The notes under the pieces were generated by a model. It had not been told where the DNA came from, made no database searches, and was given only the letters and a program-made list of their open reading frames with translations. A stretch of 64,000 nt of DNA from Escherichia coli (GTDB taxonomy: Bacteria > Pseudomonadota > Gammaproteobacteria > Enterobacterales > Enterobacteriaceae): NCBI RefSeq assembly GCF_036507355.1, contig NZ_AP027877.1; one strand, given 5' to 3'. The position numbers and the translations under genes are program-made. Positions 1-64,000 of the stretch are shown here, one piece after another (within the stretch, counting starts at the first letter, position 1; each line of letters starts with the position of its first letter).

Positions 1-400
1 GTGAGAACAGATCAACAACCACGGCAAGATACAGCCAGCCTTCGTGGGTCCTGATGTAGGTTATGTCCGTTACCCAACGCTTATCCGGAGCATCCGGATT
101 GAACTGTCGCTGGAGCCTGTTGGGCGACACGATACTGGCCTCGCCTTTACGTGCCCGCGGGCTCCGGTATCCGACCTGAGCCTTTATCCCGACACGTTTC
201 ATCAGTCGCCAGACTCTGTTCACTCCGCACTGTTGCCCGCTGTCCCGCAGATCCAGATGGATTTTGCGATAACCATAGACGCATCCCGATTCCAGCCAGA
301 ACTGTTTAATCTGCCCTGTCAGCCTCAGGTCTGCCTGATGGCGTTGTGAATGCGGCTGCTGAAGCCAGGCGTAAAAACCACTGGGATGAACATCCAGCAC
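1..400 (-). CDS. IS3-family transposase OrfB (DDE/rve), 3' part outside window
   Basis: Position-equivalent to OrfB of copy B (36072-36884) by coordinate mapping; runs off the window edge. Confidence 0.65.
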   Translation of the reverse strand, partial: MLDVHPSGFYAWLQQPHSQRHQADLRLTGQIKQFWLESGCVYGYRKIHLDLRDSGQQCGVNRVWRLMKRVGIKAQVGYRSPRARKGEASIVSPNRLQRQFNPDAPDKRWVTDITYIRTHEGWLYLAVVVDLFS

Positions 401-456
401 CCGACAGAGCAGGCGAACAGGCCAGCAACAGGTGTTGTCACGGATAAAGGCGTACC

Positions 457-741
457 TCAGTCGGACAGCTTTGCGAAGTACGCCGCGGCTTTTTTTAATA
501 TGTCCCGTTCGTCGGTAACCCGCTTCAGCTCTTTCTGGAGACGGCGGATCTCGGCCTGAGCATCTGACTGTTCTTTATTAGCGGAAGAATCCGGACCGTA
601 CTTCTTTATCCAGGCGTAAAGGCTGTGGGTGGTGATATCGAGACGTGTTGCAACGCTGGCAACAGAATAACCGCGATCAACAACCTGTTTGACTGCTTCA
701 ATTTTAAACTCTTCGGGATAACGCTTACCGCTCATGGGCAC
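457..741 (-). CDS. IS3-family transposase OrfA (HTH)
   Basis: 94-aa ORF identical to 35731-36015; T7 run at 490-496 is the reverse complement of the A7 slippery site. Confidence 0.85.
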   Translation of the reverse strand: MPMSGKRYPEEFKIEAVKQVVDRGYSVASVATRLDITTHSLYAWIKKYGPDSSANKEQSDAQAEIRRLQKELKRVTDERDILKKAAAYFAKLSD

Positions 742-795
742 CTCTCTTTAAGCCATCTTAAATGACTCTGAGGTGTCTGTTAAACCCGTGGCGAT

Positions 796-3114
<2,319 letters not shown>

Positions 3115-3427
3115 GCTTACCTTCCCTGAACGAGCTAACATAAATGCGCCCTTTCTAGCACAGCGAAAAAATGTAAATCCTGATAGCAATATGATTGAAA
3201 ATTAATAACTTTTCGTTAGGCAGTTTTGGGTGTGAGTTGCAAGAGGGGAGACTACTGAATAACTCAAGTTTTATAATCGAGGGGAAAATGGTGATGGCGT
3301 TCATAGCAAAACGCCCTCAACCATAAAGGTCGAGGGCGCTTAAGATGTTAAAAACCCGCTATCCGTTAAAAAACAATGTTCAACTAAGGTCAGTGACATT
3401 GCACTAAAAAAGCGAATTTTTAGAATT

Positions 3428-12808: not shown

Positions 12809-13996
12809 TTAGAACTGGTAGACTAAGCCCACAGCAACGATATCATCGGTAGCGATGCCGTTTTCTTTGTAGAAGTCGTCGTCGTTGTCCAGCAGGTTGA
12901 TTTTGTAATCAACATAAGTGGACATGTTTTTGTTGAAGTAGTAGGTCATACCAATATCAACATATTTAACCAGATCTTTGTTGGTGTAATGATGATTACC
13001 CTGGCTGTCGAAGTTATCACTATTTACACCGCCTAAATCCTTACCTTTAGATTGCAGGTAAGCGATGGACGGGCGCAGACCGAAGTCGAACTGATACTGA
13101 GCAACAACTTCAAAGTTTTGGGTTTTGTTAGCGATGGCATCAGCATCACCGTAACCAGTCATGTTACGGGTTTCAGCATACATAGCTGCTAAGTAAACGT
13201 TATTAGCGTCGTATTTAGCACCAACGGTCCATGCTTCTGCTGTTTCACCGCCAGCAGTTGCATCGAAGCGATCTCCATAACGAGTGTTATGAGTACCTTT
13301 GTGAACCTGATTGTCGGTACGGTCAGAGTTAGAGTAAGCAGCGCCCAGACTTAAACCAAAGTCAAAGTCATAGGAAGTGGACATACCGTAACCGTCGCCG
13401 TTCTCTTTAGCAAGTTTACGTCCATTACCGTTACCTGAACCTTCTTGATCAAATAATCCGCTTTTCTCGTTGTTACCCTGATACTGGAGTGCAAAGTTCA
13501 GACCATCAACTTGACCAAAGAAACCATTGTTACGATAGGTTGCTACGCTGTTAGCACGACCGTTCATGAAGTTGTCAGCGCCAGCATAGGTATCTCCACC
13601 AAATTCTGGCAGCATATCGGTCCATGCTTCTACGTCATATACGACACCGTAGTTACGACCATAGTCGAAAGTACCATTCTGACCAAAGCCGAAACCTGCA
13701 AATGCCAGACGCGTTGCGGTATTACCCTTGTCGCTTTCAGGACCGTTTGCGCCAATGTTAAATTCCCACTGACCATAACCAGTGAACTGGTCAGCGATCT
13801 GGGTTTCACCTTTGAAACCGATACGGGCATATGACATGTCGCCATCACTGCCAGAGTCATCAGAGAAGTAGTGCAGACCCGCTACTTTTCCGTACAAATC
13901 CAGTTTATTGCCATCTTTATTATAGACTTCAGCCGCATTTGCTGCGCCAGCAACTAATAACGCCGGGACCAGCATTGCCAGAACTTTTCTTTTCAT
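12809..13996 (-). CDS. yedS: OmpC/OmpF-family general porin, apparently intact
   Basis: Signal peptide [21 protein letters not shown], ~395 aa, C-terminal ...GLVYQF. Confidence 0.88.
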
Positions 13997-14307
13997 TATG
14001 TATTCCCTTGTGATTATAATCTTCATGAATATATCAATAAGTGCCGTTATCCAAAAAAAAGCACATTTGGATACTATTCTATGAAGTTCATTTTATTTTA
14101 AAGATTACATGTAACAAATGTATTTAAAAGACTTCAAAATGTTTCTAATCTATTTAATATGATTCATAATTATGAATTCTAAATATAAATATTCATGAAA
14201 ATTATAAGTATATATCAATATGTTATGAGTTGAGCGGAAAGATAGGGAGTATCAATGATTGTTACGCCAAACACCTGGTGTGATCACGCGCACATTAATG
14301 AAGGCAT

Positions 14308-14398
14308 AAAAAAAAGCCGGCATCATGCCGGCCCAAAAAATATAAACAAGACGATAAAAGGCTAATAACGGAAGCATCATGACACAGAATAATAAAAA
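14308..14398 (-). ncRNA. rseX: Candidate small RNA at the RseX locus (yedS-yedR intergenic)
   Basis: Minus-strand intrinsic terminator (hairpin 14316-14332, U8 from the A-run at 14308-14315); locus placement from memory of K-12, sequence identity not verified. Confidence 0.35.
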
Positions 14399-14562
14399 GG
14401 TATAATTGTAATCAGTGCTAATATATTGATTGAATGAATTAATAAAGCCGATATCAAAGATAAATAAAATCGCTCAAAACGATTTTTCCTGTATTCACTG
14501 CCGTTGCGCAAAAATTATCTATTTGTTCAAAAAATGAGTGAGTCTTGACTGGCTCATTCAAT

Positions 14563-14928
14563 GTGGAAAAATGTGACTTTTATCACATAATAGTACTAAG
14601 TCTGAATTTTCCGGGTTATCTCAAAATGGAATACGGTTCGACAAAGATGGAAGAGAGACTCTCTCGCAGCCCTGGCGGCAAACTGGCTTTGTGGGCTTTC
14701 TATACATGGTGTGGCTATTTCGTCTGAGCAATGGCGCGTTACATCTGGGTGATGAGCCGGATCCCCGATGCCCCCGTGTCGGGATTTGAAAGCGATTTAG
14801 GCTCTACCGCGGGAAAGTGGTTAGGGGCACTGGTCGGATTTTTATTTATGGCTCTGGTCGGGGCATTGTTAGGCAGCATTGCCTGGTACACCCGACCTCG
14901 TCCCGCACGTAGCAGACGCTATGAATAA
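14563..14928 (+). pseudogene. yedR: Inner membrane protein YedR interrupted by in-frame TGA
   Basis: ORFs 14545-14727 and 14731-14928 are in one frame separated by TGA at 14725-14727; GTG at 14563 to 14928 gives 121 codons. Confidence 0.6.
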
Positions 14929-14967
14929 AAACTGCTAAGGTTGCGACTCTTTGGCAACGGAGCGCGT

Positions 14968-15663
14968 ATGGACTTACAACACTGGCAGGCACAGTTCGAA
15001 AACTGGTTGAAAAACCATCATCAGCACCAGGACGCGGCCCATGACGTGTGTCATTTTCGCCGCGTCTGGGCTACGGCACAGAAGCTGGCGGCAGATGATG
15101 ACGTCGATATGCTGGTGATTTTAACCGCCTGTTATTTTCACGATATTGTGAGCCTGGCGAAAAATCATCCGCAAAGGCAGCGTTCTTCAATCCTGGCGGC
15201 AGAAGAGACGCGTCGCCTGCTCCGTGAAGAGTTCGTGCAATTTCCGGCGGAGAAAATTGAGGCCGTTTGTCATGCAATTGCCGCTCACAGTTTCAGCGCG
15301 CAAATTGCCCCCTTAACAACGGAAGCTAAAATCGTCCAGGATGCGGATCGGCTGGAAGCCCTGGGAGCGATTGGCCTGGCGCGCGTGTTTGCCGTTTCAG
15401 GGGCATTGGGCGTGGCGCTGTTTGATGGCGAAGATCCGTTCGCACAGCATCGCCCGCTTGATGATAAACGTTACGCGCTGGATCATTTCCAGACTAAGTT
15501 GCTGAAGCTACCGCAAACCATGCAAACCGTAAGAGGCAAGCAGCTGGCGCAGCACAACGCGCAATTTTTAGTCGAGTTTATGGCGAAGCTCAGTGCCGAA
15601 CTGGCGGGGGAGAATGAAGGTGTCGATCACAAGGTGATAGATGCGTTTTCACCTGCGGGCTGA
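14968..15663 (+). CDS. yedJ: HD-domain phosphohydrolase
   Basis: 231 aa [14 protein letters not shown]... with HD motif. Confidence 0.9.
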
Positions 15664-15729: not shown

Positions 15730-17148
15730 ATGCAGGAAAATATATCAGTAACCGATTCATACAGCACCGGGAATGCCGCACAGGCAATGCTGGAGAAACT
15801 GCTGCAAATTTATGATGTTAAAACGCTGGTGGCGCAGCTTAATGGTGTGGGTGAGAATCACTGGAGCGCGGCAATTTTAAAACGTGCGCTGGCGAATGAC
15901 TCGGCATGGCACCGTTTAAGTGAGAAAGAGTTCGCCCATCTGCAAACGTTGTTACCCAAACCACCGGCACATCATCCGCATTATGCGTTTCGCTTTATCG
16001 ATCTATTTGCCGGAATTGGCGGTATCCGTCGCGGTTTTGAATCGATTGGCGGACAGTGCGTGTTTACCAGCGAATGGAACAAACATGCGGTACGCACTTA
16101 TAAAGCCAACCATTATTGCGACCCGGCGACGCATCATTTTAATGAAGATATCCGCGACATCACCCTCAGCCATAAAGAAGGCGTGAGTGATGAGGCGGCG
16201 GCGGAACATATTCGTCAACACATTCCTGAACACGATGTTTTACTGGCCGGTTTCCCTTGTCAGCCATTTTCGCTGGCTGGCGTATCGAAAAAGAACTCGC
16301 TCGGGCGGGCGCACGGTTTTGCCTGCGATACTCAGGGCACGCTGTTCTTTGATGTGGTGCGCATTATCGACGCGCGTCATCCGGCGATGTTTGTGCTCGA
16401 AAACGTCAAAAACCTGAAAAGCCACGACCAGGGTAAAACGTTCCGCATCATCATGCAGACGCTGGACGAACTGGGCTATGACGTGGCTGATGCAGAAGAT
16501 AACGGGCCGGACGATCCGAAAATCATCGATGGTAAACATTTTCTGCCGCAGCACCGTGAACGCATCGTGCTGGTGGGTTTTCGTCGCGATCTTAATCTGA
16601 AAGCCGATTTTACTCTGCGTGATATCAGCGAATGTTTCCCTGCACAGCGAGTGACGCTGGCGCAGCTGCTGGACCCGATGGTCGAGGCGAAATATATCCT
16701 GACGCCGGTGCTGTGGAAGTACCTCTATCGTTATGCGAAAAAACATCAGGCGCGCGGTAACGGCTTCGGTTATGGAATGGTTTATCCGAACAATCCGCAA
16801 AGCGTCACGCGTACGCTGTCTGCGCGTTATTACAAAGATGGCGCGGAAATTTTAATCGATCGCGGCTGGGATATGGCCACGGGTGAGAAAGACTTTGACG
16901 ATCCGCTGAATCAGCAACATCGTCCACGTCGGTTAACGCCTCGGGAATGCGCGCGCTTAATGGGTTTTGAAGCGCCGGGAGAAGCGAAATTCCGCATTCC
17001 GGTTTCGGACACTCAGGCCTATCGCCAGTTCGGTAACTCGGTGGTCGTGCCGGTCTTTGCCGCGGTGGCAAAACTGCTTGAGCCAAAAATCAAACAGGCG
17101 GTGGCGTTGCGTCAGCAAGAGGCACAACATGGCCGACGTTCACGATAA
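15730..17148 (+). CDS. dcm: DNA-cytosine C5 methyltransferase Dcm
   Basis: 472 aa with FAGIGG and PCQ motifs. Confidence 0.95.
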
Positions 17149-20029: not shown

Positions 20030-22555
<2,526 letters not shown>

Positions 22556-28534: not shown

Positions 28535-29671
28535 TTAGGCGAAAATATCAACGCCGCTGTTGCCTGTTACACGCCCTTGTAAAGAGACGGGAACCGGAAG
28601 CGTATCGTCGTCTTCCCCCGCCAGAGGTTCATGGTTTGCTGTGCGTTGGCTTTGCTGTTGCTGGGAAGCGGCCTGCTGCTGACCACTAAAGCTTTCGCCA
28701 CTGATGTTGCTTTGCCCTAACTGAATGCCACTTTCGGCCAGCTGCGTACGCAGTACCGGCAGCGCAGCTTCCAGGGCGGCGCGTACGTGTTGATGCGGTG
28801 AAACCATCTGGATTTGCGCCTGGTTATCATCCACTTTGAGGGAGATTTGCACTTCACCTAAATCCTGCGGGTGCAGACGCAACTCTGCACTTTGTTGCCC
28901 CTGGCGGGTGAACAGCGAAATATGCTGGCTTAATGATTGTTGCCATTCGTGAGAACCCAGCGGTGCACTCAAAACAGGCGCGGCGACGGTGGGCAGTGGC
29001 TGTGTCTGGTGTGGAGTGATTAGCGGGCTGGCGGCAGCGGTCACCGGTGAAGGTGTGCTGATGACTTCCGCTTTACTCTGGGCTTCTGCTACCAGCGGTG
29101 TTAATGGCTGAGCTGGCGTGCCGGGGGCATCATCAGGCTGTGCTGTTGTGAGTTGCGCAGAAGTCAGTTTTGTGAAGAGCGTTGGTTTCTCTGCCGGTAA
29201 CACGGTTGACGGCACATCAGTCACTTTGGGCGTATTGTCAAAACCCGGCAACATCGCAAAAAGGGCGCTCAGGCTTGCGGTGACGTCTTCATTCAGATCA
29301 TCCGCTTTTTCGTCTTTTGTCGTATTTTTGTCAGCCACCGCAGCCACCGCAGCCAACGCCATCGTCTGAGCGGTGGTTAACGGTGTTGATGTGGATTGTT
29401 CGTCGTTGATGACAGGCGGTGTTTCATCCACAGGTATCAGTAAATCCGCTTGTTGCGCGTCGGAAACAATATCGCTGATCAGCGGCTCGCCTTTTGTCGT
29501 AGGCTTATCTGTTGCCACCAGCAACTGGGGGGCCGCTTTGTCGGTAGTTGTCTCGCCTGCTAATGCTTCGCTCAACAACGCGAGAAAATCTTGTGCAGCA
29601 TCGCTGGCTTTGCCGCCAGGCAATGTGGTGGTGTCAACGTCGGCGGTAATCAAGGGCGCTAAGCGAATCAT
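28535..29671 (-). CDS. fliK: Flagellar hook-length control protein FliK
   Basis: 378 aa, Pro/Thr/Ala-rich linker, C-terminal T3S4 domain; contains a 9-bp tandem repeat at 29332-29358. Confidence 0.92.
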
Positions 29672-30111
29672 TCAGGTTTCCTCATGGCGGCGCGCTGGGC
29701 GAACTCATCCATCTTTTTCTGATCGAGGCGGTTTTCTGCAAGCAGTGCCGCCGTGGATTGCCGTTCCTGCAGTGTCTGCTAGGCCTGCAAACGTTGTTTC
29801 TTTTCTCGCCAGCTGTTCAGGGCAATGTCAACTTTCTGCGTCCACTGATTAAGTTGCTGGCGATGCTGAGTAATGGCTTTTTCCAGCGTCTGGATAAACT
29901 GCTGATAGTTGATCCAGCGGTTGCTGGTCATCCCGGCACTCATATCGCTGTTGAGGTTATTGCGATATTCATTCTGATAATCGATCAGCATTTTGAGCTG
30001 TTCTTCCGCCTGCTGACACCCGCGACGCATTTCACCCAGCAGGCGCGCGGCATCCTCTACCTCTTTTTCTGCCAGATCTTTCAGGGTCGCCAGCGCGCCA
30101 TGTTCTGCCAT
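29668..30111 (-). pseudogene. fliJ: Flagellar export protein FliJ with internal amber codon
   Basis: 110 codons then TAG (plus-strand CTA 29779-29781); same frame continues 36 codons to a TGA overlapping the fliK ATG (ATGA), total 147 codons. Confidence 0.85.
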
Positions 30112-35357: not shown

Positions 35358-35730
35358 GTTTTGTAACCTGTTGTTGATTACATCCGATCTCACCGCGTGG
35401 GGCATGGATGGGGCAAACTCACTCATTATCTGGTTTAAAATGGATACCTGATCCTGAACGTTTTCTGCCATCCACGATCCGTATACACGATAAACCCTCT
35501 GATTATCAGAGTGTCTCATTTGACACATCACCACGTCGGATGTTGTTACGACCACAGACGCAACAGTAACCTCTGGATAATTTAATCTTTGTTGATGTTT
35601 TTATTCATATTCCGGGCTATGGATATGAGCGATTTTTGATAGTGGTAATTTTATTGTGTTTTAGAATGCGCCCTGAATCGCCACGGGTTTAACAGACACC
35701 TCAGAGTCATTTAAGATGGCTTAAAGAGAG

Positions 35731-36015
35731 GTGCCCATGAGCGGTAAGCGTTATCCCGAAGAGTTTAAAATTGAAGCAGTCAAACAGGTTGTTGATCGCG
35801 GTTATTCTGTTGCCAGCGTTGCAACACGTCTCGATATCACCACCCACAGCCTTTACGCCTGGATAAAGAAGTACGGTCCGGATTCTTCCGCTAATAAAGA
35901 ACAGTCAGATGCTCAGGCCGAGATCCGCCGTCTCCAGAAAGAGCTGAAGCGGGTTACCGACGAACGGGACATATTAAAAAAAGCCGCGGCGTACTTCGCA
36001 AAGCTGTCCGACTGA
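35731..36015 (+). CDS. IS3-family transposase OrfA
   Basis: 94 aa with HTH; A7 slippery run at 35976-35982 near the 3' end for -1 frameshifting into OrfB. Confidence 0.88.
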   Translation: MPMSGKRYPEEFKIEAVKQVVDRGYSVASVATRLDITTHSLYAWIKKYGPDSSANKEQSDAQAEIRRLQKELKRVTDERDILKKAAAYFAKLSD

Positions 36016-36071
36016 GGTACGCCTTTATCCGTGACAACACCTGTTGCTGGCCTGTTCGCCTGCTCTGTCGG

Positions 36072-36884
36072 GTGCTGGATGTTCATCCCAGTGGTTTTTA
36101 CGCCTGGCTTCAGCAGCCGCATTCACAACGCCATCAGGCAGACCTGAGGCTGACAGGGCAGATTAAACAGTTCTGGCTGGAATCGGGATGCGTCTATGGT
36201 TATCGCAAAATCCATCTGGATCTGCGGGACAGCGGGCAACAGTGCGGAGTGAACAGAGTCTGGCGACTGATGAAACGTGTCGGGATAAAGGCTCAGGTCG
36301 GATACCGGAGCCCGCGGGCACGTAAAGGCGAGGCCAGTATCGTGTCGCCCAACAGGCTCCAGCGACAGTTCAATCCGGATGCTCCGGATAAGCGTTGGGT
36401 AACGGACATAACCTACATCAGGACCCACGAAGGCTGGCTGTATCTTGCCGTGGTTGTTGATCTGTTCTCACGCAAAATTATCGGCTGGTCCATGCAATCC
36501 CGGATGACAAAGGACATTGTCCTGAACGCACTGCTGATGGCTGTATGGCGCCGTAATCCCCAAAAACAGGTGCTGGTTCATTCGGATCAGGGCAGTCAGT
36601 ACACAAGCCATGAGTGGCAGTCGTTCCTGAAATCACACGGCCTGGATGGCAGCATGAGCCGTCGCGGTAACTGCCATGATAATGCGGTTGCAGAAAGCTT
36701 TTTCCAGTTGTTGAAACGCGAACGGATAAAGAAAAAGATCTACGGAACGCGGGAAGAAGCCCGCAGCGATATTTTTGATTACATCGAAATGTTTTATAAC
36801 AGTAAGCGTCGGCATGGTTCCAGCGATCAGATGTCACCGACAGAATATGAAAACCAGTATTATCAACGGCTCGGAAGTGTCTAG
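36072..36884 (+). CDS. IS3-family transposase OrfB (DDE/rve integrase domain)
   Basis: 270-aa ORF; frame stays open upstream of the first ATG, consistent with an OrfAB fusion. Confidence 0.88.
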   Translation: MLDVHPSGFYAWLQQPHSQRHQADLRLTGQIKQFWLESGCVYGYRKIHLDLRDSGQQCGVNRVWRLMKRVGIKAQVGYRSPRARKGEASIVSPNRLQRQFNPDAPDKRWVTDITYIRTHEGWLYLAVVVDLFSRKIIGWSMQSRMTKDIVLNALLMAVWRRNPQKQVLVHSDQGSQYTSHEWQSFLKSHGLDGSMSRRGNCHDNAVAESFFQLLKRERIKKKIYGTREEARSDIFDYIEMFYNSKRRHGSSDQMSPTEYENQYYQRLGSV

Positions 36885-37086
36885 ATTATCCGTGGCGATT
36901 CATACTTTTTATAGAATGCAATCCTATTAAAGAGGCATTTTTAATGCCATGGACTTTGACAGACATTACCTATGGAATATCGCAGAGAAAATATATTGTT
37001 ACGAATCCCGATGATTATGATAAATATTCTTACATGGTTAAAAGGATAGTAATAGATGGTCATAATTAAATAATTTATTTATGTGC

Positions 37087-38152
37087 TGAATTTACAATCC
37101 AAGTGCAACAAAAAAAGAAGTACTCATCAACTAGAATATAATTTTGTTTCCACACAAAAACCACTTCCAAATGATGAGTACTTCCTACCGACATCTTACA
37201 ATAAACGAGCGAGAAAAGATAATGATTTTACTCGCACAGGGCAAAAAACAAGCAGAAATTGCCAAAGCACTGGGACGTAGCTCCAGCACCATTTCTCGCG
37301 AGCTGAAACGACACGCTCTAGAAAGCTACAGTGCAACGAACGCACAAAACAGCTATTTGAAGCATCGTCAAAATAGCAAAGCACAGCGCAAATTAGAGCA
37401 GCCTGAATATTTCAATTTGGTGCAAGAAAAGTTTCTGACAGAAAACTGGTCGCCCGAACAAATCAGCGCACGATTAAAATTGGAAAAATCTGAATTATCC
37501 ATTAGTTATTCAACCATTTATCGTGGTATTTATTCAGGGTTGTTTGATATAGGCGAACGCAAAGCCAGTCGCAAACTGCGCCACAAAGGCAAAACACGGC
37601 ATACAAAAAATCATCATGAAAAACGTGGCAAAATTCAGATATCCAACCATTTGAACGACCGTCCCATTTCGGCGCAAAATCGCAGTCGCTTTGGACATTG
37701 GGAAGCCGATACCGTACTGGGTAAAGCGGGTGGAGCTTGTTTGCTGACGCTGACGGAACGCAAAAGTCGTTTTGAGTTGGTGAAGAAAATTCCTGCCAAA
37801 AAAGCCGAAGCAGTCCAAAAAGCCATGATTGAATTGCTGGATTCACATATATTGCGGTCAATTACGCCAGACCGTGGTAAAGAATTTGCCCAACATCGTT
37901 TGGTAACAGAAGCACTGGGTGTAGAATTTTACTTCCCCGAGCCGCATCAACCGTGGACACGGGGAACGAATGAAAATACAAATGGGTTACTTCGTGAATA
38001 CTTTCCGAAGCACCAAGACATCAATCAGTGGAGCGAAGTTGATATTCAACAGGTGATCAATAAACTGAATTTACGACCACGTAAATGTTTAGGTTGGAAA
38101 ACACCTTATGAAGTTTACTTCAAAAAATCGTTGCACTTGGTTTGACAATTCA
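37087..38152 (+). mobile_element. IS30-family insertion sequence (~1.07 kb, AT-rich; ISApl1-like by size and organisation)
   Basis: Single transposase ORF; imperfect ~23-bp inverted repeats TGAATTTACAATCCAAGTGCAAC / GTTGCACTTGGTTTGACAATTCA; right repeat overlaps the tnp stop. Confidence 0.7.
37222..38145 (+). CDS. IS30-family DDE transposase
   Basis: HTH N-terminus, conserved GHWEADTV and TRGTNENTNGLLR motifs; 307 codons from ATG 37222 (track ORF from TTG 37144). Confidence 0.8.
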   Translation: MILLAQGKKQAEIAKALGRSSSTISRELKRHALESYSATNAQNSYLKHRQNSKAQRKLEQPEYFNLVQEKFLTENWSPEQISARLKLEKSELSISYSTIYRGIYSGLFDIGERKASRKLRHKGKTRHTKNHHEKRGKIQISNHLNDRPISAQNRSRFGHWEADTVLGKAGGACLLTLTERKSRFELVKKIPAKKAEAVQKAMIELLDSHILRSITPDRGKEFAQHRLVTEALGVEFYFPEPHQPWTRGTNENTNGLLREYFPKHQDINQWSEVDIQQVINKLNLRPRKCLGWKTPYEVYFKKSLHLV

Positions 38153-38295
38153 AGGTAATTAATTAGGCGTAATTGTGTCACTGGAATAGAGGTTTCTTGT
38201 GGCGCATGTAGAAGTGGCGTCTATGGACAAGGCGTTTCCTGCTGGTGATAAATAAAGGCGCAGCACGTCGAATGCAAGAATGTGCTGCGTCTGGC

Positions 38296-38775
38296 TCATG
38301 GCAATTCATTATTTTCGCATAGCGTCAATGATAAAAATCGACTGTGTGGATCAAATCGATAATCAGCAAACGGTTCGCAATCAACGAATCCATGTTTCAA
38401 ATAAAGTTGATGGCAGGCCGTAAATCCAGCCTGTGTACCCGTTTCTAAGCTCAGGCGATGAAGGCATCTGTCCTGGGCGACCTGCAAAATGTGGCGTAAA
38501 ATCAGACTGGCGACACCACGACGTAAATAATTTGGCGCGGTACGCATTGATTTTAGCTCGCCATGTTTATCATCCAGCAACTTCAGCGCACCAATTCCTG
38601 CGAGTTGTTCGCCTTCCCATACTGACCAGAATGTCACTGTCGGGTTACGTAATTTTTGCACATCTAAAGCATGACTGCTTTCGGGGGGAGACTGCTGCAG
38701 CATGTCGGAAATATGGTAAGCCACTAATGCTTGCACTGCTGGATGGGTGAGATCATCTGTTTTAATCGTGAACAT
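38296..38775 (-). CDS. yedL: GNAT-family N-acetyltransferase
   Basis: 159 aa. Confidence 0.85.
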   Translation of the reverse strand: MFTIKTDDLTHPAVQALVAYHISDMLQQSPPESSHALDVQKLRNPTVTFWSVWEGEQLAGIGALKLLDDKHGELKSMRTAPNYLRRGVASLILRHILQVAQDRCLHRLSLETGTQAGFTACHQLYLKHGFVDCEPFADYRFDPHSRFLSLTLCENNELP

Positions 38776-38885
38776 GACGATTCCGTATTGGTGTTATTTT
38801 TGCAATATGCCAACAGGTAATGAAATCTTTGTCTAATAGAGATTTCTTATGACGCAGTATTGTTGATCAATAATCTCCAGGCTTA

Positions 38886-39554
38886 TCAAACAGGTTGAAT
38901 TAACTCCGCGCCCTGGTTTTTAACATTACCCACCGCGCGCGATACCGGGTGCCAGGTGAACTGGTTTGCTGGCACACAACCACTGGCCGCGATTTCTGAG
39001 GCTTCTTTACCGCTAATCTCTTGCCGCATCCATTCCCGCGCAGCATCTGGCGACAGTACCAGTGGGCGGCGGTCATGAATATCCACCAGACCTTGATCTG
39101 CCGCCGCAGTGACAATCAAAAATCCTTCGGCTTCGTCACCGCGCTCGAACGGTGTGCTGCCTATCGCGGCCATAAAAACAGGTTGTCCATCAGTACGATA
39201 GATAAAATAAGGCTGCTTTTTGTCGCCTTCTTTTTTCCACTCAAACCAGCCATCGGCAAAACAGATTGCCCGACCATGTTGCCAGAGCGGTTTAAACATG
39301 CGACTCGTTGCGGCAGTTTCTACGCGGGCGTTAATCAGTGGCGGTTTATCCCACCATCCGGGAGCATATCCCCAAAAAACCGGATCCAGATGAAGGTGTT
39401 CATCACGTTCACTGAGCAGAAGGACTTTGGTTCCCGGCGCGACGTTGTATCTGCCAATGGGTTCGGGATCATAGGGAATATCGCGTTCAATATCTTCAGC
39501 GAGAAGCGCAAGGTAATCTTCACGCGTTTGGGATTGGGCAAAGCGTCCACACAT
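38886..39554 (-). CDS. yedK: SOS-response-associated peptidase (SRAP/HMCES-like abasic-site binding protein)
   Basis: 222 aa starting MCGRF (Cys2). Confidence 0.9.
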   Translation of the reverse strand: MCGRFAQSQTREDYLALLAEDIERDIPYDPEPIGRYNVAPGTKVLLLSERDEHLHLDPVFWGYAPGWWDKPPLINARVETAATSRMFKPLWQHGRAICFADGWFEWKKEGDKKQPYFIYRTDGQPVFMAAIGSTPFERGDEAEGFLIVTAAADQGLVDIHDRRPLVLSPDAAREWMRQEISGKEASEIAASGCVPANQFTWHPVSRAVGNVKNQGAELIQPV

Positions 39555-57427: not shown

Positions 57428-57503
<76 letters not shown>

Positions 57504-57557
57504 GTTTAAAAGACATCGGCCTCAAGCGGATGTCTGGCTGAAAGGCCTGAAGAATTT

Positions 57558-57631
57558 GGCGCGTTAACAAAGCGGTTATGTAGCGGATTGCAAATCCGTC
57601 TAGTCCGGTTCGACTCCGGAACGCGCCTCCA
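57558..57631 (+). tRNA. cysT: tRNA-Cys (GCA)
   Basis: 74 nt GGCGCGTTAACAAAGCGG...GCGCCTCCA. Confidence 0.95.
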
Positions 57632-57643
57632 ATTTCTTCCCGA

Positions 57644-57730
57644 GCCCGGATGGTGGAATCGGTAGACACAAGGGATTTAAAATCCCTCGGCGTTCGCGCT
57701 GTGCGGGTTCAAGTCCCGCTCCGGGTACCA
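57644..57730 (+). tRNA. leuZ: tRNA-Leu (TAA)
   Basis: 87 nt GCCCGGATGGTGGAATCGG...GGGTACCA. Confidence 0.95.
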
Positions 57731-57772
57731 TGGGAAACATCAGAATAATCAAAGCAATAAGCAGTGTCGTGA

Positions 57773-57796
57773 AACCACCTTCGGGTGGTTTTTTTG
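57773..57796 (+). terminator. Rho-independent terminator of the glyW-cysT-leuZ operon
   Basis: AACCACC-TTCG-GGTGGTT followed by T7. Confidence 0.85.
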
Positions 57797-57969
57797 TGCA
57801 TGCAATTCACGCCCTGTGCATATCCTGTGCTCACGGGGTGCAATGAGCTGCAATCTTCAGCCTGGCAATGCCGAATCGAACGTGTCGCTTCCAGCATAGA
57901 GAACCAGGCCGCTTTGCCTGTTTTCCGGTACGCTTCCGGGAAGGGGGCCGCTGAGCAAGCTGTAATGCT

Positions 57970-58709
57970 CTAGCCACCCTGAGTACAAAGTTGCTTAATT
58001 CGTGCAATCACCTCATCTCTGTACTTCTGGTGTCCGCGCATAGCCCTTGGATGGGCAATTCTGAAACAGATTGCATTACCTGTTTTGAACTCCCATAGCT
58101 TCCCCGGAATGACTGCAGAAGTCTCATAGCCGCCCAGCTCAGTAAGCACCTGTTTTATGATGTAGTCTGTTCTCCGGGCTCCAGATGCAAAGATGATGAA
58201 ATCAGGCTCAAGGTGTTTAATTTGTACCGCCAGCAGCTTCAGCGAGGCAATATAACTTCCTGCACTTCATTTTGAGGGCGATTGAGAGGGGTCAGTCCGT
58301 CGTAATCCCACGCCAGTAGATTGGCATACACGATAGCCTGAGGAGGGATATTAAGCTCCCGGGCCAGCCTGAAATGATACTGCGTGAAGCGGCTACGTGA
58401 TTTGAGGTTAGTGGTGCCATAATTTTGTACCGGAAGATGTTTCCTGTAACGATCTACAGCTTCTTCAACCACCTGCCCGATGGTGACGTCAGGTATAAGT
58501 CCCAACACCCGTGATATCGTATTCTTACCATTCAGAGTATTCCAGCCAGCGGTTTCACGTCCAACCAGCATGATTTTTACCGGTGAGTGCCAGTATTCTT
58601 CAAAGGGCACGGGTAAAAAGACGCCTGAGTATTTATCCTCATTCAGGTTAAATGACTGGGCGTCAACTTCCTGCAATATCCGTTTGTACGCGTCTAATAG
58701 CTTTTCCAT
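57970..58709 (-). pseudogene. Hypothetical protein with uracil-DNA-glycosylase-superfamily-like motifs, split by a frameshift
   Basis: 156-codon ORF (58239-58709) continues in another frame for ~89 codons to TAG at 57970-57972; frames overlap at ~58242-58268; motifs KIMLVGRETAGW and IAHPRAMRG resemble UDG motifs A and B. Confidence 0.55.
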
Positions 58710-58789
58710 TCTTCAATCCTGCCCCGTAATAAAAACACCTTCAGATATATATTATCTCCATGATATCAATCAGATACATGAGGATAATT

Positions 58790-59989
58790 ATGCAAAAATC
58801 CTTCCGGTTTACCAATGCATCCATCAAAGCCCTACCTGCAAATACTGATACCCGCTCTACAGAGCTTGAGGTATCTGATACCGAAGTTATTGGACTCAAG
58901 TGCCTCTCAGGTCGAACAGGCAACAAGCGCTTCCTTCTGCGGTATACATTCCACGGTACCAAAAAAAGTATCAGTATTGGCAGATTTCCTGAAATTGATG
59001 TGGGAACAGCCCGGCAAATAGCCCGTCGTCACAAAGAAGCGATTGCGCTGGGAAATGACCCTAAAGCGGAGCGAGATAACTACCGCGCGATGCCAACACT
59101 TGGTGAGTTTTTCCATCAAACCTATGTTCCTTATATAAAGCGCCATAAAAAGTCATGGGATAAGGATGTTCAGCGTTTCACGCAATACATTGAACCTCGT
59201 CTGGGAAAGATACGTTACTGCGATCTCAGGGCCAGAGAGATACAACAGGTGCTGTTTGACATGCTGGAGGGGCGTATTCACGGGCAGCAATATGCGCCGT
59301 CTACCTGTAACAGAGCCCTTGCTATTCTGAAAACGATGGGGCGTTATGCGTTGCGACAGGATGTGCTGGAAAAGAATGAAGCCGATAAGATCCCTTTGCT
59401 GAAAGAGAATAATCAGCGGACGCGCTTTTTTGATGCTGATGAGATCAGGCGCATTCTTGACGCTGCTACCCAATATCCCAACAAAGCTGCCGGGGGATTG
59501 ATAGCCATGTTGTTGTTAACCGGTACACGCAAATCAGAAATGCTTAATGTCAGGCATGAACATATCGACCGGGCCAATCGTACTCTGTTCATTCCTTATA
59601 CAAAAAATGGTCGCAGTCGGACGGTATATCTAAGCGATGCCGCATTATCGATTATTGATGCTATCCCACGAGTTGGCAGTAATCCGTATCTGTTCGCCAT
59701 TAAGGATAATGGAAAACCGATATCGGAACCCCGATGGGCATATGAAAAAATACTGGCACAGTGCGGTATAGACAAGAATGAAGTCTGTTTTCACACCACA
59801 CGTCATTCTGTTGCCTCTTTACTGGTTTCGAGTGGTCAATTCAGCCTGTATGACGTTAAAGCCCAACTGGCGCATGCCAGTATTCAGAGTACAGAACGTT
59901 ACGCGAAATTAACACCGGAACGTATGCGTCAGACAGGGCAGGGAGTGACTGACCTGCTTCTGAATACTGCGGCTACGAAGCAGATGTGA
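58790..59989 (+). CDS. int: Tyrosine recombinase / phage integrase (P4-type), island integrase next to leuZ
   Basis: ~399 aa from ATG 58790 with RBS GAGGA; C-terminal catalytic region HTTRHS...ERYAKL. Confidence 0.88.
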   Translation: MQKSFRFTNASIKALPANTDTRSTELEVSDTEVIGLKCLSGRTGNKRFLLRYTFHGTKKSISIGRFPEIDVGTARQIARRHKEAIALGNDPKAERDNYRAMPTLGEFFHQTYVPYIKRHKKSWDKDVQRFTQYIEPRLGKIRYCDLRAREIQQVLFDMLEGRIHGQQYAPSTCNRALAILKTMGRYALRQDVLEKNEADKIPLLKENNQRTRFFDADEIRRILDAATQYPNKAAGGLIAMLLLTGTRKSEMLNVRHEHIDRANRTLFIPYTKNGRSRTVYLSDAALSIIDAIPRVGSNPYLFAIKDNGKPISEPRWAYEKILAQCGIDKNEVCFHTTRHSVASLLVSSGQFSLYDVKAQLAHASIQSTERYAKLTPERMRQTGQGVTDLLLNTAATKQM

Positions 59990-60019
59990 CTACTTTTTAG
60001 CAAACTATAAATATGGAGA

Positions 60020-60262
60020 ATGAGGATGCATTTAAAATGCCCACAGTGTGGCAGTTGTAATACATTGATAAGTTCAGCAGGAAAACTGCCATCGATAACC
60101 GATAATAAACGCTCTGGGTATATTAGCCTGGAGTTTTTACCTGAAATACTGAAAGAAATTATTAAGGCTATTAAAAAACTATTTGGATTCCTTGAACAGT
60201 GTGAAAGGAATAATGCTCCAGTGCTTATCTGTATGGACTGTGGGTATTATGAAAGAATTTAA
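60020..60262 (+). CDS. Small zinc-ribbon protein (CxxC...CxxC), hypothetical
   Basis: 80 aa with CPQCGSC and CMDCGY; followed by its own terminator. Confidence 0.55.
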   Translation: MRMHLKCPQCGSCNTLISSAGKLPSITDNKRSGYISLEFLPEILKEIIKAIKKLFGFLEQCERNNAPVLICMDCGYYERI

Positions 60263-60310
60263 ATAGAAAACCAATAACTGTAAATAATAGTTATGCGGAT
60301 GTATAAAAAC

Positions 60311-60339
60311 CCCGATACGTTAATCGTATCGGGTTTTTT
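60311..60339 (+). terminator. Rho-independent terminator separating the zinc-ribbon gene from the three-gene cluster
   Basis: CCCGATACG-TTAAT-CGTATCGGG followed by T6, A-run upstream. Confidence 0.8.
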
Positions 60340-60357
60340 GTTTATGAGGATCATTCA

Positions 60358-60729
60358 ATGAAATTTGTCTCGAACTGGCAAGACCTGCCGTCGCTCCTTC
60401 TTCCGGAGTCAGTAATGAGTCTGTTGAAAACAGAGCTGGTACTCCCATTTGAAGATGAATACTCTGCAATGAGTTTCTGGGATGAAGTCGGGGTGACATT
60501 AATATATGTCGAGCCCGATGATGTACCTGAAGATATTAAAGCGCAGGTATTAAATGTGATTCATCAGTTAATTGCAAATCCAGAATTTGTAGTCCGTCTG
60601 ACAGATGACTATTACCTGATGCTTTCTGTTACGGAAGATAACGGGAACGGTATTTATCTGTTATTTCACCCCGATTGCCCTCTGAAGGGTATTGATTTAT
60701 TAGTTTCTATGGCCGAATCACGCTATTAA
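60358..60729 (+). CDS. Hypothetical acidic protein (123 aa)
   Basis: RBS GAGGA; highly acidic; AT-rich codon usage unlike the flanking core genes. Confidence 0.6.
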   Translation: MKFVSNWQDLPSLLLPESVMSLLKTELVLPFEDEYSAMSFWDEVGVTLIYVEPDDVPEDIKAQVLNVIHQLIANPEFVVRLTDDYYLMLSVTEDNGNGIYLLFHPDCPLKGIDLLVSMAESRY

Positions 60730-60754
60730 ACACAAGCAAAACCAGGAACACAAA

Positions 60755-61288
60755 ATGAGTAAATCAAAATTAGTTAAAAATAATGTTGAGTCAGTTTCGA
60801 AGGAGATTAAAAATGAGGCAGAGGTTATTCATGAAAATCTCAGTGCAGATGAACAAACATTATCTGATGTAAAAGACTATCAGTTGCTCATTGAAACAGG
60901 TCAGGCAGAAAAAATCAGTCCTAAGGCAAGTGGTATGCTGACATGGCAACTGGCGATATCAGAGGTGGACAATGAACTTTATCTTCGTCTGGTGGCAAAT
61001 GGCTGTGGAGGGTTGTTCTCTAAGGACTGGATCTCACTTTCAAAGATTGCATCTGTTCTGGAAACACAACCTGCTACCGGCTTCTCATCCGGAGTATTCA
61101 GGCCGCTATTCAAAGGGGCAAGCACCAACAATGCAGGTTTTCTGGCTGCAGTTTTACGCTCCCCGGATATATGTCTGCTGGAGGCACATCCAGAGAAGTT
61201 ATTTACTCATGTATTATACCCGGACTGGAGGGAGCGGTTGAATAAACTTAATACGATTAGTAGCCAGGAAAAGATTACAGAGGATTAA
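60755..61288 (+). CDS. Hypothetical protein (177 aa)
   Basis: RBS AGGA; 25-nt gap from upstream gene, suggesting co-transcription. Confidence 0.6.
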   Translation: MSKSKLVKNNVESVSKEIKNEAEVIHENLSADEQTLSDVKDYQLLIETGQAEKISPKASGMLTWQLAISEVDNELYLRLVANGCGGLFSKDWISLSKIASVLETQPATGFSSGVFRPLFKGASTNNAGFLAAVLRSPDICLLEAHPEKLFTHVLYPDWRERLNKLNTISSQEKITED

Positions 61289-61360
61289 TTTATTTCCTGC
61301 ACTGTTATACAACCAGAAATCACCACACACCACTATTTACTTTCTAAAGGAAAATTTATT

Positions 61361-61795
61361 ATGCAAACCCAATATGCCTTAAAACAGGCAGGATTAACTC
61401 TGCCTGTTACTAAAGAATTTCAGCAGCATATTACTACGCTTCTGGCAAATCGGGTTTTACAAAAAATAACTGAGGCAGTGGTTATTAATTTCCGTGATCC
61501 GGACTACAGTGCAGAATCCGGCGGATTTCATCCGGTTGAAATGCGATTCATCCGTCAGGATAACGAATGGTATTTCGATTATGTCACAGACTTTAGTTAC
61601 ATGGGACGAGTCTACCCGGAACTGGAAAAAGAAATTGATTTTTGCTGGTCGGGGAATTATGTCTTCCATTATCTGGCTGGGGATATTTCACTGGCGGCAG
61701 AGAGGAATGAACTCTGGTCCTTATGGGAGGGTAATTTTATGGATTACCTGTCTATGGGGATTTACCGGGTAACGGTAACTGTGGAAAGTTGTTGA
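61361..61795 (+). CDS. Hypothetical protein (144 aa)
   Basis: RBS AAGGA; Trp/Tyr/Phe-rich. Confidence 0.6.
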   Translation: MQTQYALKQAGLTLPVTKEFQQHITTLLANRVLQKITEAVVINFRDPDYSAESGGFHPVEMRFIRQDNEWYFDYVTDFSYMGRVYPELEKEIDFCWSGNYVFHYLAGDISLAAERNELWSLWEGNFMDYLSMGIYRVTVTVESC

Positions 61796-62096
61796 CCCGT
61801 TATGAACAGGAAGAAAGCGGGCGGCTTTGTAATCTACTGCATGTGGCGTGCATCACAGCATGGAGATGATGTCTCTTTTTCCTGGCTGTTCGCATAAACA
61901 AGTGCAGACACGGGGGATCTCAGATCCCTCGTGATTTTTGCCCCCTATGGTGCATTCTCCAGTAGCAGGGTGATAACGGTTAATCCATTACCCCAACGAC
62001 AGTATTACACCGGTAATAAATGTTCATGAATACAGTTAGTTATGTGGGTTTTGAGGTGGGCTATGTCATCGTTGACGATAACTGAAGGTTTTACAG

Positions 62097-62324
62097 ATGT
62101 ATAAAACTCGCGGTGAAAGGATCGCAGAAAGGCTGTGCTGGATATTACTTCAACTGTATACCGGTAATACGGTATCGGTTAATGATATATGTCAGCGTTT
62201 CGCGGTCAGTCGCCGAACCGGACAGCGTGATTTGTTGAGAGTTGAAACTGTAACGGAAACTATTTCACCTGGAAGGGTAAGGCTGGCAAATTTGATAAGG
62301 GAACGAGTTAGACGAAATTTTTAA
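62097..62324 (+). CDS. HTH DNA-binding protein, possibly a truncated regulator
   Basis: 75 aa; helix-turn-helix-like segment VSVNDICQRFAVSRRTGQRDL. Confidence 0.45.
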   Translation: MYKTRGERIAERLCWILLQLYTGNTVSVNDICQRFAVSRRTGQRDLLRVETVTETISPGRVRLANLIRERVRRNF

Positions 62325-62546
62325 TCGAATCCATATCAATTCTATAAAATATGAAAATTAACGGGAGTAAATATACACTCCCGTTATAATGCAACCTTTT
62401 TTTAACTACTCAAATGATATTAATTTAGGTGCGACAGTGTTTTTATGACATGTTAAATTCGCAAGATCAATAATATCATGAAACAATTTTAGGTAATGCT
62501 GCCAACTTACTGATTTAGTGTATGATGGTGATTTTAAGGTGCTTGC

Positions 62547-62822
62547 GTGGCTTCCATTTCCATCAGATGTCCTTCCTGCTACGCTACTGAAGGCGTGGTG
62601 CGTAACGGCAAAAGCACTGCCGGACATCAGCGCTATCTCTGCTCTCATTACCGTAAAACATGGCAACTACAGTTCACTTACACCGCCTCTCAGCCCGGTA
62701 CGCACCAGAAAATCATTGATATGGCCATGAATGGCGTCGGATGTCGCGCCAGTGCACGCATTATGGGCGTTGGCCTCAACACGGTTTTACGTCACTTAAA
62801 AAACTCAGGCCGCAGTCGGTAA
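62547..62822 (+). CDS. insA: IS1 InsA
   Basis: 91 aa [23 protein letters not shown]... Confidence 0.92.
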
Positions 62823-62848
62823 CCTAGCGCATACAACCGGGCGGTGAT

Positions 62849-63244
62849 GTGATTGTCTGCGCTGAAATGGACGAACAGCGGGGTTACGTCGGCGCTAAAT
62901 CACGCCAGCGCTGGTTGTTTTACGCGTATGACAGGATTCGGAGGACGGTTGTGGCGCACGTATTCGGTGAACGCACTCTGGCCACACTGGAGCGTCTTCT
63001 GAGCCTGCTGTCGGCCTTTGAGGTCGTGGTATGGATGACGGATGGCTGGCCGCTGTATGAATCCCGCCTGAAGGGAAAGCTGCACGTTATCAGCAAGCGT
63101 TACACTCAGCGCATTGAGCGACATAATCTGAATCTGAGACAACATCTGGCAAGGCTGGGACGGAAGTCACTGTCGTTCTCAAAATCGGTGGAGCTGCATG
63201 ACAAGGTCATCGGGCATTATCTGAACATAAAACACTATCAGTAA
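62849..63244 (+). CDS. insB: IS1 InsB (expressed as InsAB' by -1 frameshift)
   Basis: Frame open upstream of the first ATG. Confidence 0.9.
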
Positions 63245-63435
63245 GTTGGAGTCATTACCTGTTTTTGCTGCATATTTGGCCATGCACTTTTGCCATCAAG
63301 TCAGAGAGACAGGGGCACCGTAAGAGACGAAGGTTGCTGCCTGTGATGAGAGGTTATCAGCAATTACAATGGTCACTAATATTTACATAATGTCGGAGAA
63401 CATCATTTTAGTTGAAATAATATAAAGGCGGTTCT

Positions 63436-63762
63436 ATGTATTTACATATCAGAAAGTATCAACTCGTAAATGCGAGATGGCGTGATATCATTGATTTGAC
63501 GGATTATGAAGAAACAATCAAGCAGGTTGTGAGTACATTATTTGGAAATGATTTTATTGAGGTCAGAGTTGAAACGCGTTGTTTTATTCTGACAGTAAAC
63601 AGTACAAGCAGTAAAATACCACACGGCATACTGGTGAATATGGGGAAAAGGCTGGCGGCGAATCTCCAGAGTATCACCTGTCATGCCATGCGGATCTATC
63701 ATGTAAATGGCCATCCTGACGCGCGGCAGTTATTTCACTGTTTTGATGCCGATTGCCTGTGA
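63436..63762 (+). CDS. Hypothetical protein (108 aa)
   Basis: ORF only; beyond IS1 in AT-rich DNA. Confidence 0.4.
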   Translation: MYLHIRKYQLVNARWRDIIDLTDYEETIKQVVSTLFGNDFIEVRVETRCFILTVNSTSSKIPHGILVNMGKRLAANLQSITCHAMRIYHVNGHPDARQLFHCFDADCL

Positions 63763-64000
63763 TTAAGCCCCCAACTTCTGTTAAAGGAGTTGGGGGAGAT
63801 TTAACGGTTATCAGACTGGAAGACAGAATGTCGGATATTTACGGGCTATGATATCCATCAGTGACTTCATTCGCGGTGTTACAGAACTAAATTTCATTTG
63901 GGGTATTTTTGCTCTTACCGCATTTTTTACATCAGTCACCGTTACTGAATAGCCTTCTGACGTCAGCCATTCAGCAACCTCTTTACAGGAATAACTTTTT

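Follow-up and report, generated by a model that had tools for sequence, protein, structure and literature searches.

The window, by which is meant the whole 64,000-nucleotide stretch of Escherichia coli DNA analysed here, carries a drpB locus that is collinear with those of K-12 and RM10042, in the order hchA, a porin of the ompC/yedS type, drpB, yedJ, dcm and vsr. With positions 14400-15000 as query, megablast matched 4,910 of the 5,426 complete E. coli genomes at this locus, where the gene is annotated as drpB, "cell division protein DrpB", and is followed by yedJ. A preliminary description of this DNA had called the gene yedR, an identity with which both the protein family model NF038392 and the synteny agree, the name now in use being drpB (PMC7648144). 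The features of the locus are the following.

14309 to 14398, minus strand: small RNA rseX, next to drpB on its upstream side (Rfam RF01401, 97.7 bits against a gathering score of 50).
14563 to 14565, plus strand: GTG from which the 121-aa form of yedR used to be annotated, not the physiological start (translation, PMC7648144).
14564 to 14591, plus strand: predicted sigma-70-like promoter, TGGAAA-16-CATAAT, within the old GTG-1 to ATG-22 stretch (consensus scan).
14626 to 14928, plus strand: drpB (ex-yedR) frame, 100 codons plus stop, broken at codon 34 (NF038392, synteny with K-12 and RM10042, start according to PMC7648144).
14626 to 14724, plus strand: residual N-terminal frame, a predicted 33-aa peptide MEYGSTKMEERLSRSPGGKLALWAFYTWCGYFV with the cytoplasmic tail and approximately the first half of transmembrane helix 1 (TMH1) (translation, hydropathy).
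14647 to 14649, plus strand: ATG-29, the RefSeq/PGAP start that gives the 93-aa DrpB (RefSeq annotation).
14725 to 14727, plus strand: premature TGA, that is, W34* in the 100-aa form, W27* in the RefSeq 93-aa form and W55* in the old 121-aa form, from G->A at 14727 (alignment, translation).
14731 to 14928, plus strand: downstream 65-codon ORF from an internal ATG (old Met57), covering the end of TMH1, the periplasmic loop, TMH2 and the C-tail (ORF list, NF038392).
14968 to 15663, plus strand: yedJ (HD phosphohydrolase), intact, 40 nt past the drpB stop (annotation and synteny in K-12 and RM10042).

DrpB is built of two transmembrane helices joined by a periplasmic loop of about 20 aa, in the form of an N-in/C-in hairpin (PMC7648144). 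With its Trp restored, the window product scores 151.6 bits on the NCBIfam model NF038392 (div_DrpB_YedR; cut-off 50), and the two fragments taken alone score 41.3 bits (N-terminal, the 33-aa frame matching model positions 1-25 of 86) and 92.2 bits (C-terminal, the 65-codon ORF matching positions 28-85). This model was used in place of Pfam for the family assignment; neither the intact product nor the split ones had a match in a scan against a Pfam set that was used without the newer DrpB model PF28000. The window shares with K-12 DrpB (NF038392 / WP_001297704.1) the order rseX - drpB - yedJ - dcm - vsr, and after Trp restoration its protein is identical to that of K-12 (WP_001297704.1). Unlike in K-12, the frame is broken at codon 34 of 100, and a two-helix protein would be impossible by normal translation. 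[quoted passage not shown] Read from its sequence, the locus is a drpB gene that would be unable to encode an intact DrpB. On the upstream side, a terminator-like hairpin is present in the rseX region at 14334-14314, and the yedS/ompC-like porin gene beside drpB (12809-14026, minus strand) is intact in the window and 99.9% identical to the copy in strain Z1323CEC0007; the same neighbour is a frameshifted pseudogene in K-12 and is split by IS2 in strain E94.

The preliminary description had placed ORFs 14545-14727 and 14731-14928 in one frame, with a TGA at 14725-14727 between them in the context TGGTGTGGCTATTTCGTC TGA GCAATGGCG, and this is what the window holds: it reads TGG TGT GGC TAT TTC GTC TGA GCA ATG GCG, and the two ORFs are kept apart by the stop and one GCA codon alone. 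Translation of 14563-14928 gives 121 sense positions with one internal and one terminal stop, and the comparison with a reference yedR that had been proposed was made with K-12, in which the same span translates to the uninterrupted 121-aa old YedR. The suspected change of TGG to TGA was borne out by alignment, in that K-12 and RM10042 both show TGG and the window has G->A at 14727, the third base of the codon. This is the sole coding change that alters the drpB product in relation to K-12 and other E. coli. Over 14540-14935 the window and RM10042 differ at 14558 (upstream) and 14727 alone, and within the RefSeq 93-aa CDS the window equals RM10042 except at 14727, with K-12 differing at one further, synonymous site, 14763. 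Reference genes sharing the stop, which had been named as the case that would speak against a lesion, were looked for and are absent from the 5,426 complete E. coli genomes. The exact 61-mer with the TGA has no match among these genomes, 4,907 of which match the locus, each at least one mismatch away, and the G->A is accordingly the derived state. An exact 36-mer with the TGA likewise has no match in the GTDB representative genomes or the JGI metagenomes.

In the preliminary description the frame was read from the GTG at 14563, and the 121 codons so obtained do equal the length of the old K-12 YedR; this GTG is not the start, however, and the reading belongs to an obsolete annotation. The 121-codon frame from the GTG is that of the old EcoCyc annotation. 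The start with experimental support is ATG-22, at 14626 in the window, which gives a protein of 100 aa, and the M29 form also works in the published assay (PMC7648144). The predicted sigma-70-like promoter lies where the promoter mapping in the same work would have it (PMC7648144). Since drpB starts at 14626, the stop is W34* and not the W55* of the old numbering. By hydropathy and the published topology it is located in the middle of TMH1 (approximately residues 19-43), before the periplasmic loop, TMH2 (approximately residues 64-88) and the basic C-tail. In comparison with intact orthologues the lesion is a premature in-frame stop in the derived state.

An allele met in none of the 5,426 complete genomes invites the question of whether it is real, and the answer comes from an independent draft assembly, GCA_905398585.1 (contig CAJPYR010000035.1), which is 99.95% identical to window positions 10030-31244; the differences are two SNPs (10234 and 16379) and a 9-bp indel in a fliK repeat. 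It carries the same drpB TGA as the window, together with the same +1 G in dgcQ and the same TAG in fliJ. A sequencing or assembly error, with G as the true base at 14727, would account for the TGA allele being unique against 5,426 complete genomes. However, the same base and the same two other lesions occur in a genome that was assembled separately and is different elsewhere, and neither a homopolymer nor a methylation motif (CCWGG or GATC) is present at the site; an error is therefore highly unlikely. Because the base is shared by an independent assembly with differences elsewhere, the drpB TGA is real and inherited, and on the basis of the two assemblies the lesion is heritable within a small clone. 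What was observed directly is the mutation together with its derived state, the occurrence of the same base in two independent assemblies and the identity of the gene, and on the genomes compared drpB W34* can be regarded as a new, clone-restricted nonsense allele. The deposited annotation follows the broken frame: the product of the 60-aa upstream ORF matches BED21968.1 (VEE46_17360) exactly and was deposited as a hypothetical protein, the 65-aa downstream product is an exact match to BED21969.1 in GenBank, and the truncated 110-aa FliJ is an exact match to BED21990.1 (VEE46_17580), which lies 22 locus tags past VEE46_17360, as does fliJ by the gene count of the window when dgcQ is counted as split. 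The VEE46 genome, an E. coli genome of 4.64 Mb, is thus either where the window comes from or nearly identical to it.

The two SNPs, in dcm (16379) and hprS (10234), are the only substitutions between the window and GCA_905398585.1 over 21 kb. That at 16379 changes CGT to CAT (Arg to His) a short way upstream of the ENV motif of Dcm and is lacking in four other genomes too. In fliK, at 29331-29340, the copy number of the 9-bp repeat unit CAGCCACCG differs between the window and GCA_905398585.1, and 9-bp gaps also appear in comparison with Z1323CEC0007, a small in-frame tandem-repeat polymorphism.

The second lesion lies in dgcQ (yedQ, 20030-21725), where one additional G (GG->GGG) near 21095 leaves ORFs of 407 aa and 193 aa. 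The product of dgcQ is a diguanylate cyclase that regulates cellulose synthesis. The exact 61-mer with the additional G occurs in none of the 5,426 complete genomes, the change is common to the window and GCA_905398585.1, and the frameshifted dgcQ fragment occurs on contigs from other samples, GCA_905398585.1 included; the related lineage was traced by this fragment, the 60-aa upstream drpB ORF having given no entry in the contig index. The third lesion is in fliJ (29668-30111, minus strand), which the preliminary description had paired with drpB as a second G->A transition creating a stop in a Trp codon. The stop at codon 111 of 147 is true (TGG->TAG, base 29780), but it is amber and not opal and sits at a Dcm site, which points to another mechanism: the plus strand changes from CCAGG to CTAGG, and the mutated base is the methylated inner C of the Dcm sequence CCWGG, as expected of a hotspot. 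The inner C of CCWGG is a classic hotspot of 5-methylcytosine deamination, as at the lacI nonsense sites. Both dcm and vsr are intact and lie 12-14 kb from fliJ in the same window. Of the 5,426 complete genomes, 4 have the identical fliJ allele, and since their backgrounds are plainly distinct (TUM9757, E94/E92 and NR301), the allele recurs; it is flagged as a pseudogene in all three of the records inspected (TUM9757, E94 and NR301). With FliJ lost, the clone is presumably non-motile.

The CCWGG hotspots of lacI likewise yield stops by G:C->A:T change, as in drpB, and fliJ W111amber is exactly such a case. Unlike the lacI-type hotspots, the drpB site reads 5'-GCCCAGAC-3' on the complementary strand, which is not CCWGG, and the Dcm hotspot mechanism therefore does not apply; such a hotspot had been considered for the drpB mutation and was rejected on the context GTCTGGGCA / TGCCCAGAC. 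A mutagenised or mutator strain was also considered. In comparison with four genomes, 29 kb of the window showed 139 window-specific changes, among them 133 base substitutions, of which 72 are G:C->A:T; this proportion is the ordinary E. coli bias in a naturally divergent background, and the mutator idea was rejected.

Mobile elements are found at several places in the window. In 1-3189 an IS3-family element (approximately 1-799, up to 100% identical to other E. coli copies) abuts a yeeJ-like ORF (796-3189) for a truncated Ig-domain adhesin, so that yeeJ is cut by the insertion sequence. Between fliE and yedK (35400-38900) there are an IS3-family orfB (36072-36884) and an IS30-like transposase gene (37144-38145), and the same interval in relatives holds emrE-ybcL-ybcM and an IS200/TnpB remnant. 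At the right end (57428-64000) a P4-type tyrosine integrase gene (58760-59989) comes immediately after the tRNA cluster glyW-cysT-leuZ, and beyond it lie DNA of low GC (41-44%), a gene for a DUF2787 protein and an IS1 transposase gene (62849-63244). Collinearity with strain Z1323CEC0007 stops there, at the leuZ region, and 57428-64000 looks like a genomic island inserted at leuZ.

The W34* allele is not the only nonsense allele of drpB. Others were found through calls of the 65-aa ORF, which gene callers annotate in genomes with upstream drpB stops, a method that reveals only stops upstream of Met57, and allele frequencies were taken as exact 61-mer counts. The first, W23*, is a TGG->TGA change in the first Trp of helix 1 (window-equivalent 14694) that was met at nine sampled loci, and its exact 61-mer occurs in 249 of the 5,426 complete genomes (4.6%), among them strains named ST648, ST540, APEC O2-211 and an O39:NM strain. 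Its haplotype carries 14558T, 14658G and 14676T. That it occurs in several backgrounds suggests that the allele is old or has moved by recombination. In strain ST648 (NZ_CP008697.1), the one W23* genome that was checked, PGAP gives drpB as a pseudogene with an internal stop. This allele resembles that of the window in being a third-base G->A in a TMH1 Trp codon of the same gene, with the same 65-aa ORF downstream; it differs in lying 33 nt upstream in another Trp codon, in its haplotype and in its frequency, 249 of 5,426 genomes against one small clone. A third allele, again TGG->TGA but in the second Trp of helix 1 (window-equivalent 14709), was seen at one sampled locus and is absent from the 5,426 complete genomes. 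Trp accounts for 6 of the 100 residues of DrpB, and of the 13 ways in which a transition could create a stop in the gene, 12 affect a TGG codon. The three independent nonsense alleles that were found all have TGA, and TAG is seen in none (p = 0.125 if the rates are equal); a TGA bias over three events, with discovery limited to the region upstream of Met57, is only a weak hint. About 500 complete genomes (about 9%) have no match at all to the drpB locus.

What the stop does to the gene can be considered against the published work on K-12. The drpB gene is not essential, and multicopy rescue of an ftsEX deletion is lost when a stop is engineered at codon 23 or at codon 30, despite the downstream Met57 (PMC7648144). 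Deletion of the periplasmic residues 48-57 abolishes ftsEX rescue, and T89A abolishes the activation of Rcs by DrpB (PMC11709261); the loop residues 48-57 and T89 are both downstream of the stop in the window. The drpB deletion divides almost normally and is sick only when combined with a dedD deletion in high-salt medium, and septal localisation, ftsEX rescue and the synthetic defect with dedD have been published for the K-12 allele only (PMC7648144). On these grounds it is very probable that a genuine nonsense mutation has become fixed in one clone and has made its drpB a null or near-null pseudogene that is nearly silent. A spontaneous G:C->A:T transition at 14727 turned Trp codon 34 from TGG into TGA, and for ribosomes starting from the ATG at 14626 Val33 would be the last residue added. 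This would leave a peptide of 33 residues that has half of TMH1 but neither the loop in the periplasm nor helix 2 nor the C-terminal tail, and, as the missing parts bear the known activities, function would be lost. At most about 0.1-2% of ribosomes may read the UGA with Trp-tRNA(Trp) and so restore the wild-type protein unchanged. A nearly silent phenotype is to be expected, since cells with a drpB deletion show nearly normal division as long as they retain dedD. Loss of function, read-through at about this level and near-neutrality of W34* are what we infer as most likely. The absence of further decay in the frame past the stop counts against a null allele, as it means either that the lesion arose recently or that what remains of the gene is under constraint. 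As a kind of lesion W34* appears ordinary, a pseudogene of the same sort as the common W23* and no new type of feature.

The 65-aa ORF raises the thought that the gene has been split and not lost, with reinitiation at ATG 14731, four bases past the TGA, giving a 65-residue single-helix protein that keeps part of the function. The stop and this ATG are three bases apart, the ORF is annotated by gene callers and it holds the loop, TMH2 and T89. Inspection of the sequence before ATG 14731 showed no convincing Shine-Dalgarno sequence at a usable distance, however, which speaks against reinitiation, as does the loss of rescue with stops at codons 23 and 30 when Met57 was available (PMC7648144), and the fragment lacks a complete TMH1, so that the N-in/C-in hairpin topology cannot form. 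A functional split gene is for these reasons very improbable. An in-frame UGA with an open frame downstream might also be read as programmed recoding, by selenocysteine or another dedicated decoding, and the selenium-metabolism genes yedE and yedF are in the same window. Against this, the codon is TGG in every relative examined, where a recoded UGA would be expected to be conserved, the folding of the 75 nt that surround and follow the stop does not surpass that of shuffled sequence (z = -0.82), with no SECIS-type hairpin, and the window's five tRNA genes, which were also searched for a suppressor tRNA, include none with a suppressor anticodon. With no SECIS-like fold, no suppressor anticodon and TGG in relatives, programmed recoding is practically excluded.

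More deserving of discussion is a leaky hypomorph, in which Trp-tRNA(Trp) would read the UGA often enough to make a useful amount of wild-type DrpB, and TGA alleles would be tolerated or even favoured as a means of lowering the dosage. UGA is the leakiest of the stop codons. It is decoded by Trp-tRNA(Trp) at a low rate in competition with RF2, with general stop read-through at 10^-3 to 10^-2, and in K-12 BW25113 the read-through measured with a UGA reporter was about 2% at 37 C, against 4% at 25 C (PMC10570021). Read-through by this tRNA would insert the original Trp, the frame downstream of the stop is undamaged, all three of the independent drpB nonsense alleles are TGA with one of them reaching 4.6% of complete genomes, and overproduction of DrpB triggers the Rcs and Psp stress responses (PMC11709261). 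The base after the drpB stop is G, however, and not the A that favours misreading by tRNA-Trp (PMC5289835), and three events carry no statistical weight. The reporter values, moreover, come from K-12, whose RF2 is unusually weak, and a wild isolate therefore probably terminates better. Finally, drpB is already dispensable and absent from about 9% of genomes, so that nothing needs preserving. That all the alleles are TGA is a weak argument for a hypomorph as opposed to a null, and a leaky hypomorph is, on balance, unlikely. A slightly longer shot still is that drpB has been repeatedly turned down, not off, by TGG->TGA and never TAG changes in the Trp-rich TMH1 across independent lineages, with tRNA-Trp read-through yielding wild-type protein at about the percent level; if this were true, leaky TGA alleles would be a natural device for lowering the dosage of a membrane protein whose excess triggers Rcs and Psp.

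With a null or near-null drpB as the favoured reading, there are consequences for annotation and for how the clone is seen. ORFs 14545-14727 and 14731-14928, now deposited as separate proteins, should be merged as a drpB pseudogene with an internal stop, and the annotated start should be 14626 or 14647 and not the GTG at 14563. A clone that would be without DrpB, FliJ and DgcQ would show a small cluster of losses in surface and envelope genes. For E. coli as a whole, the case adds a data point to the view that drpB is dispensable in nature, where about 9% of complete genomes have no match to the locus and about 5% carry W23*.
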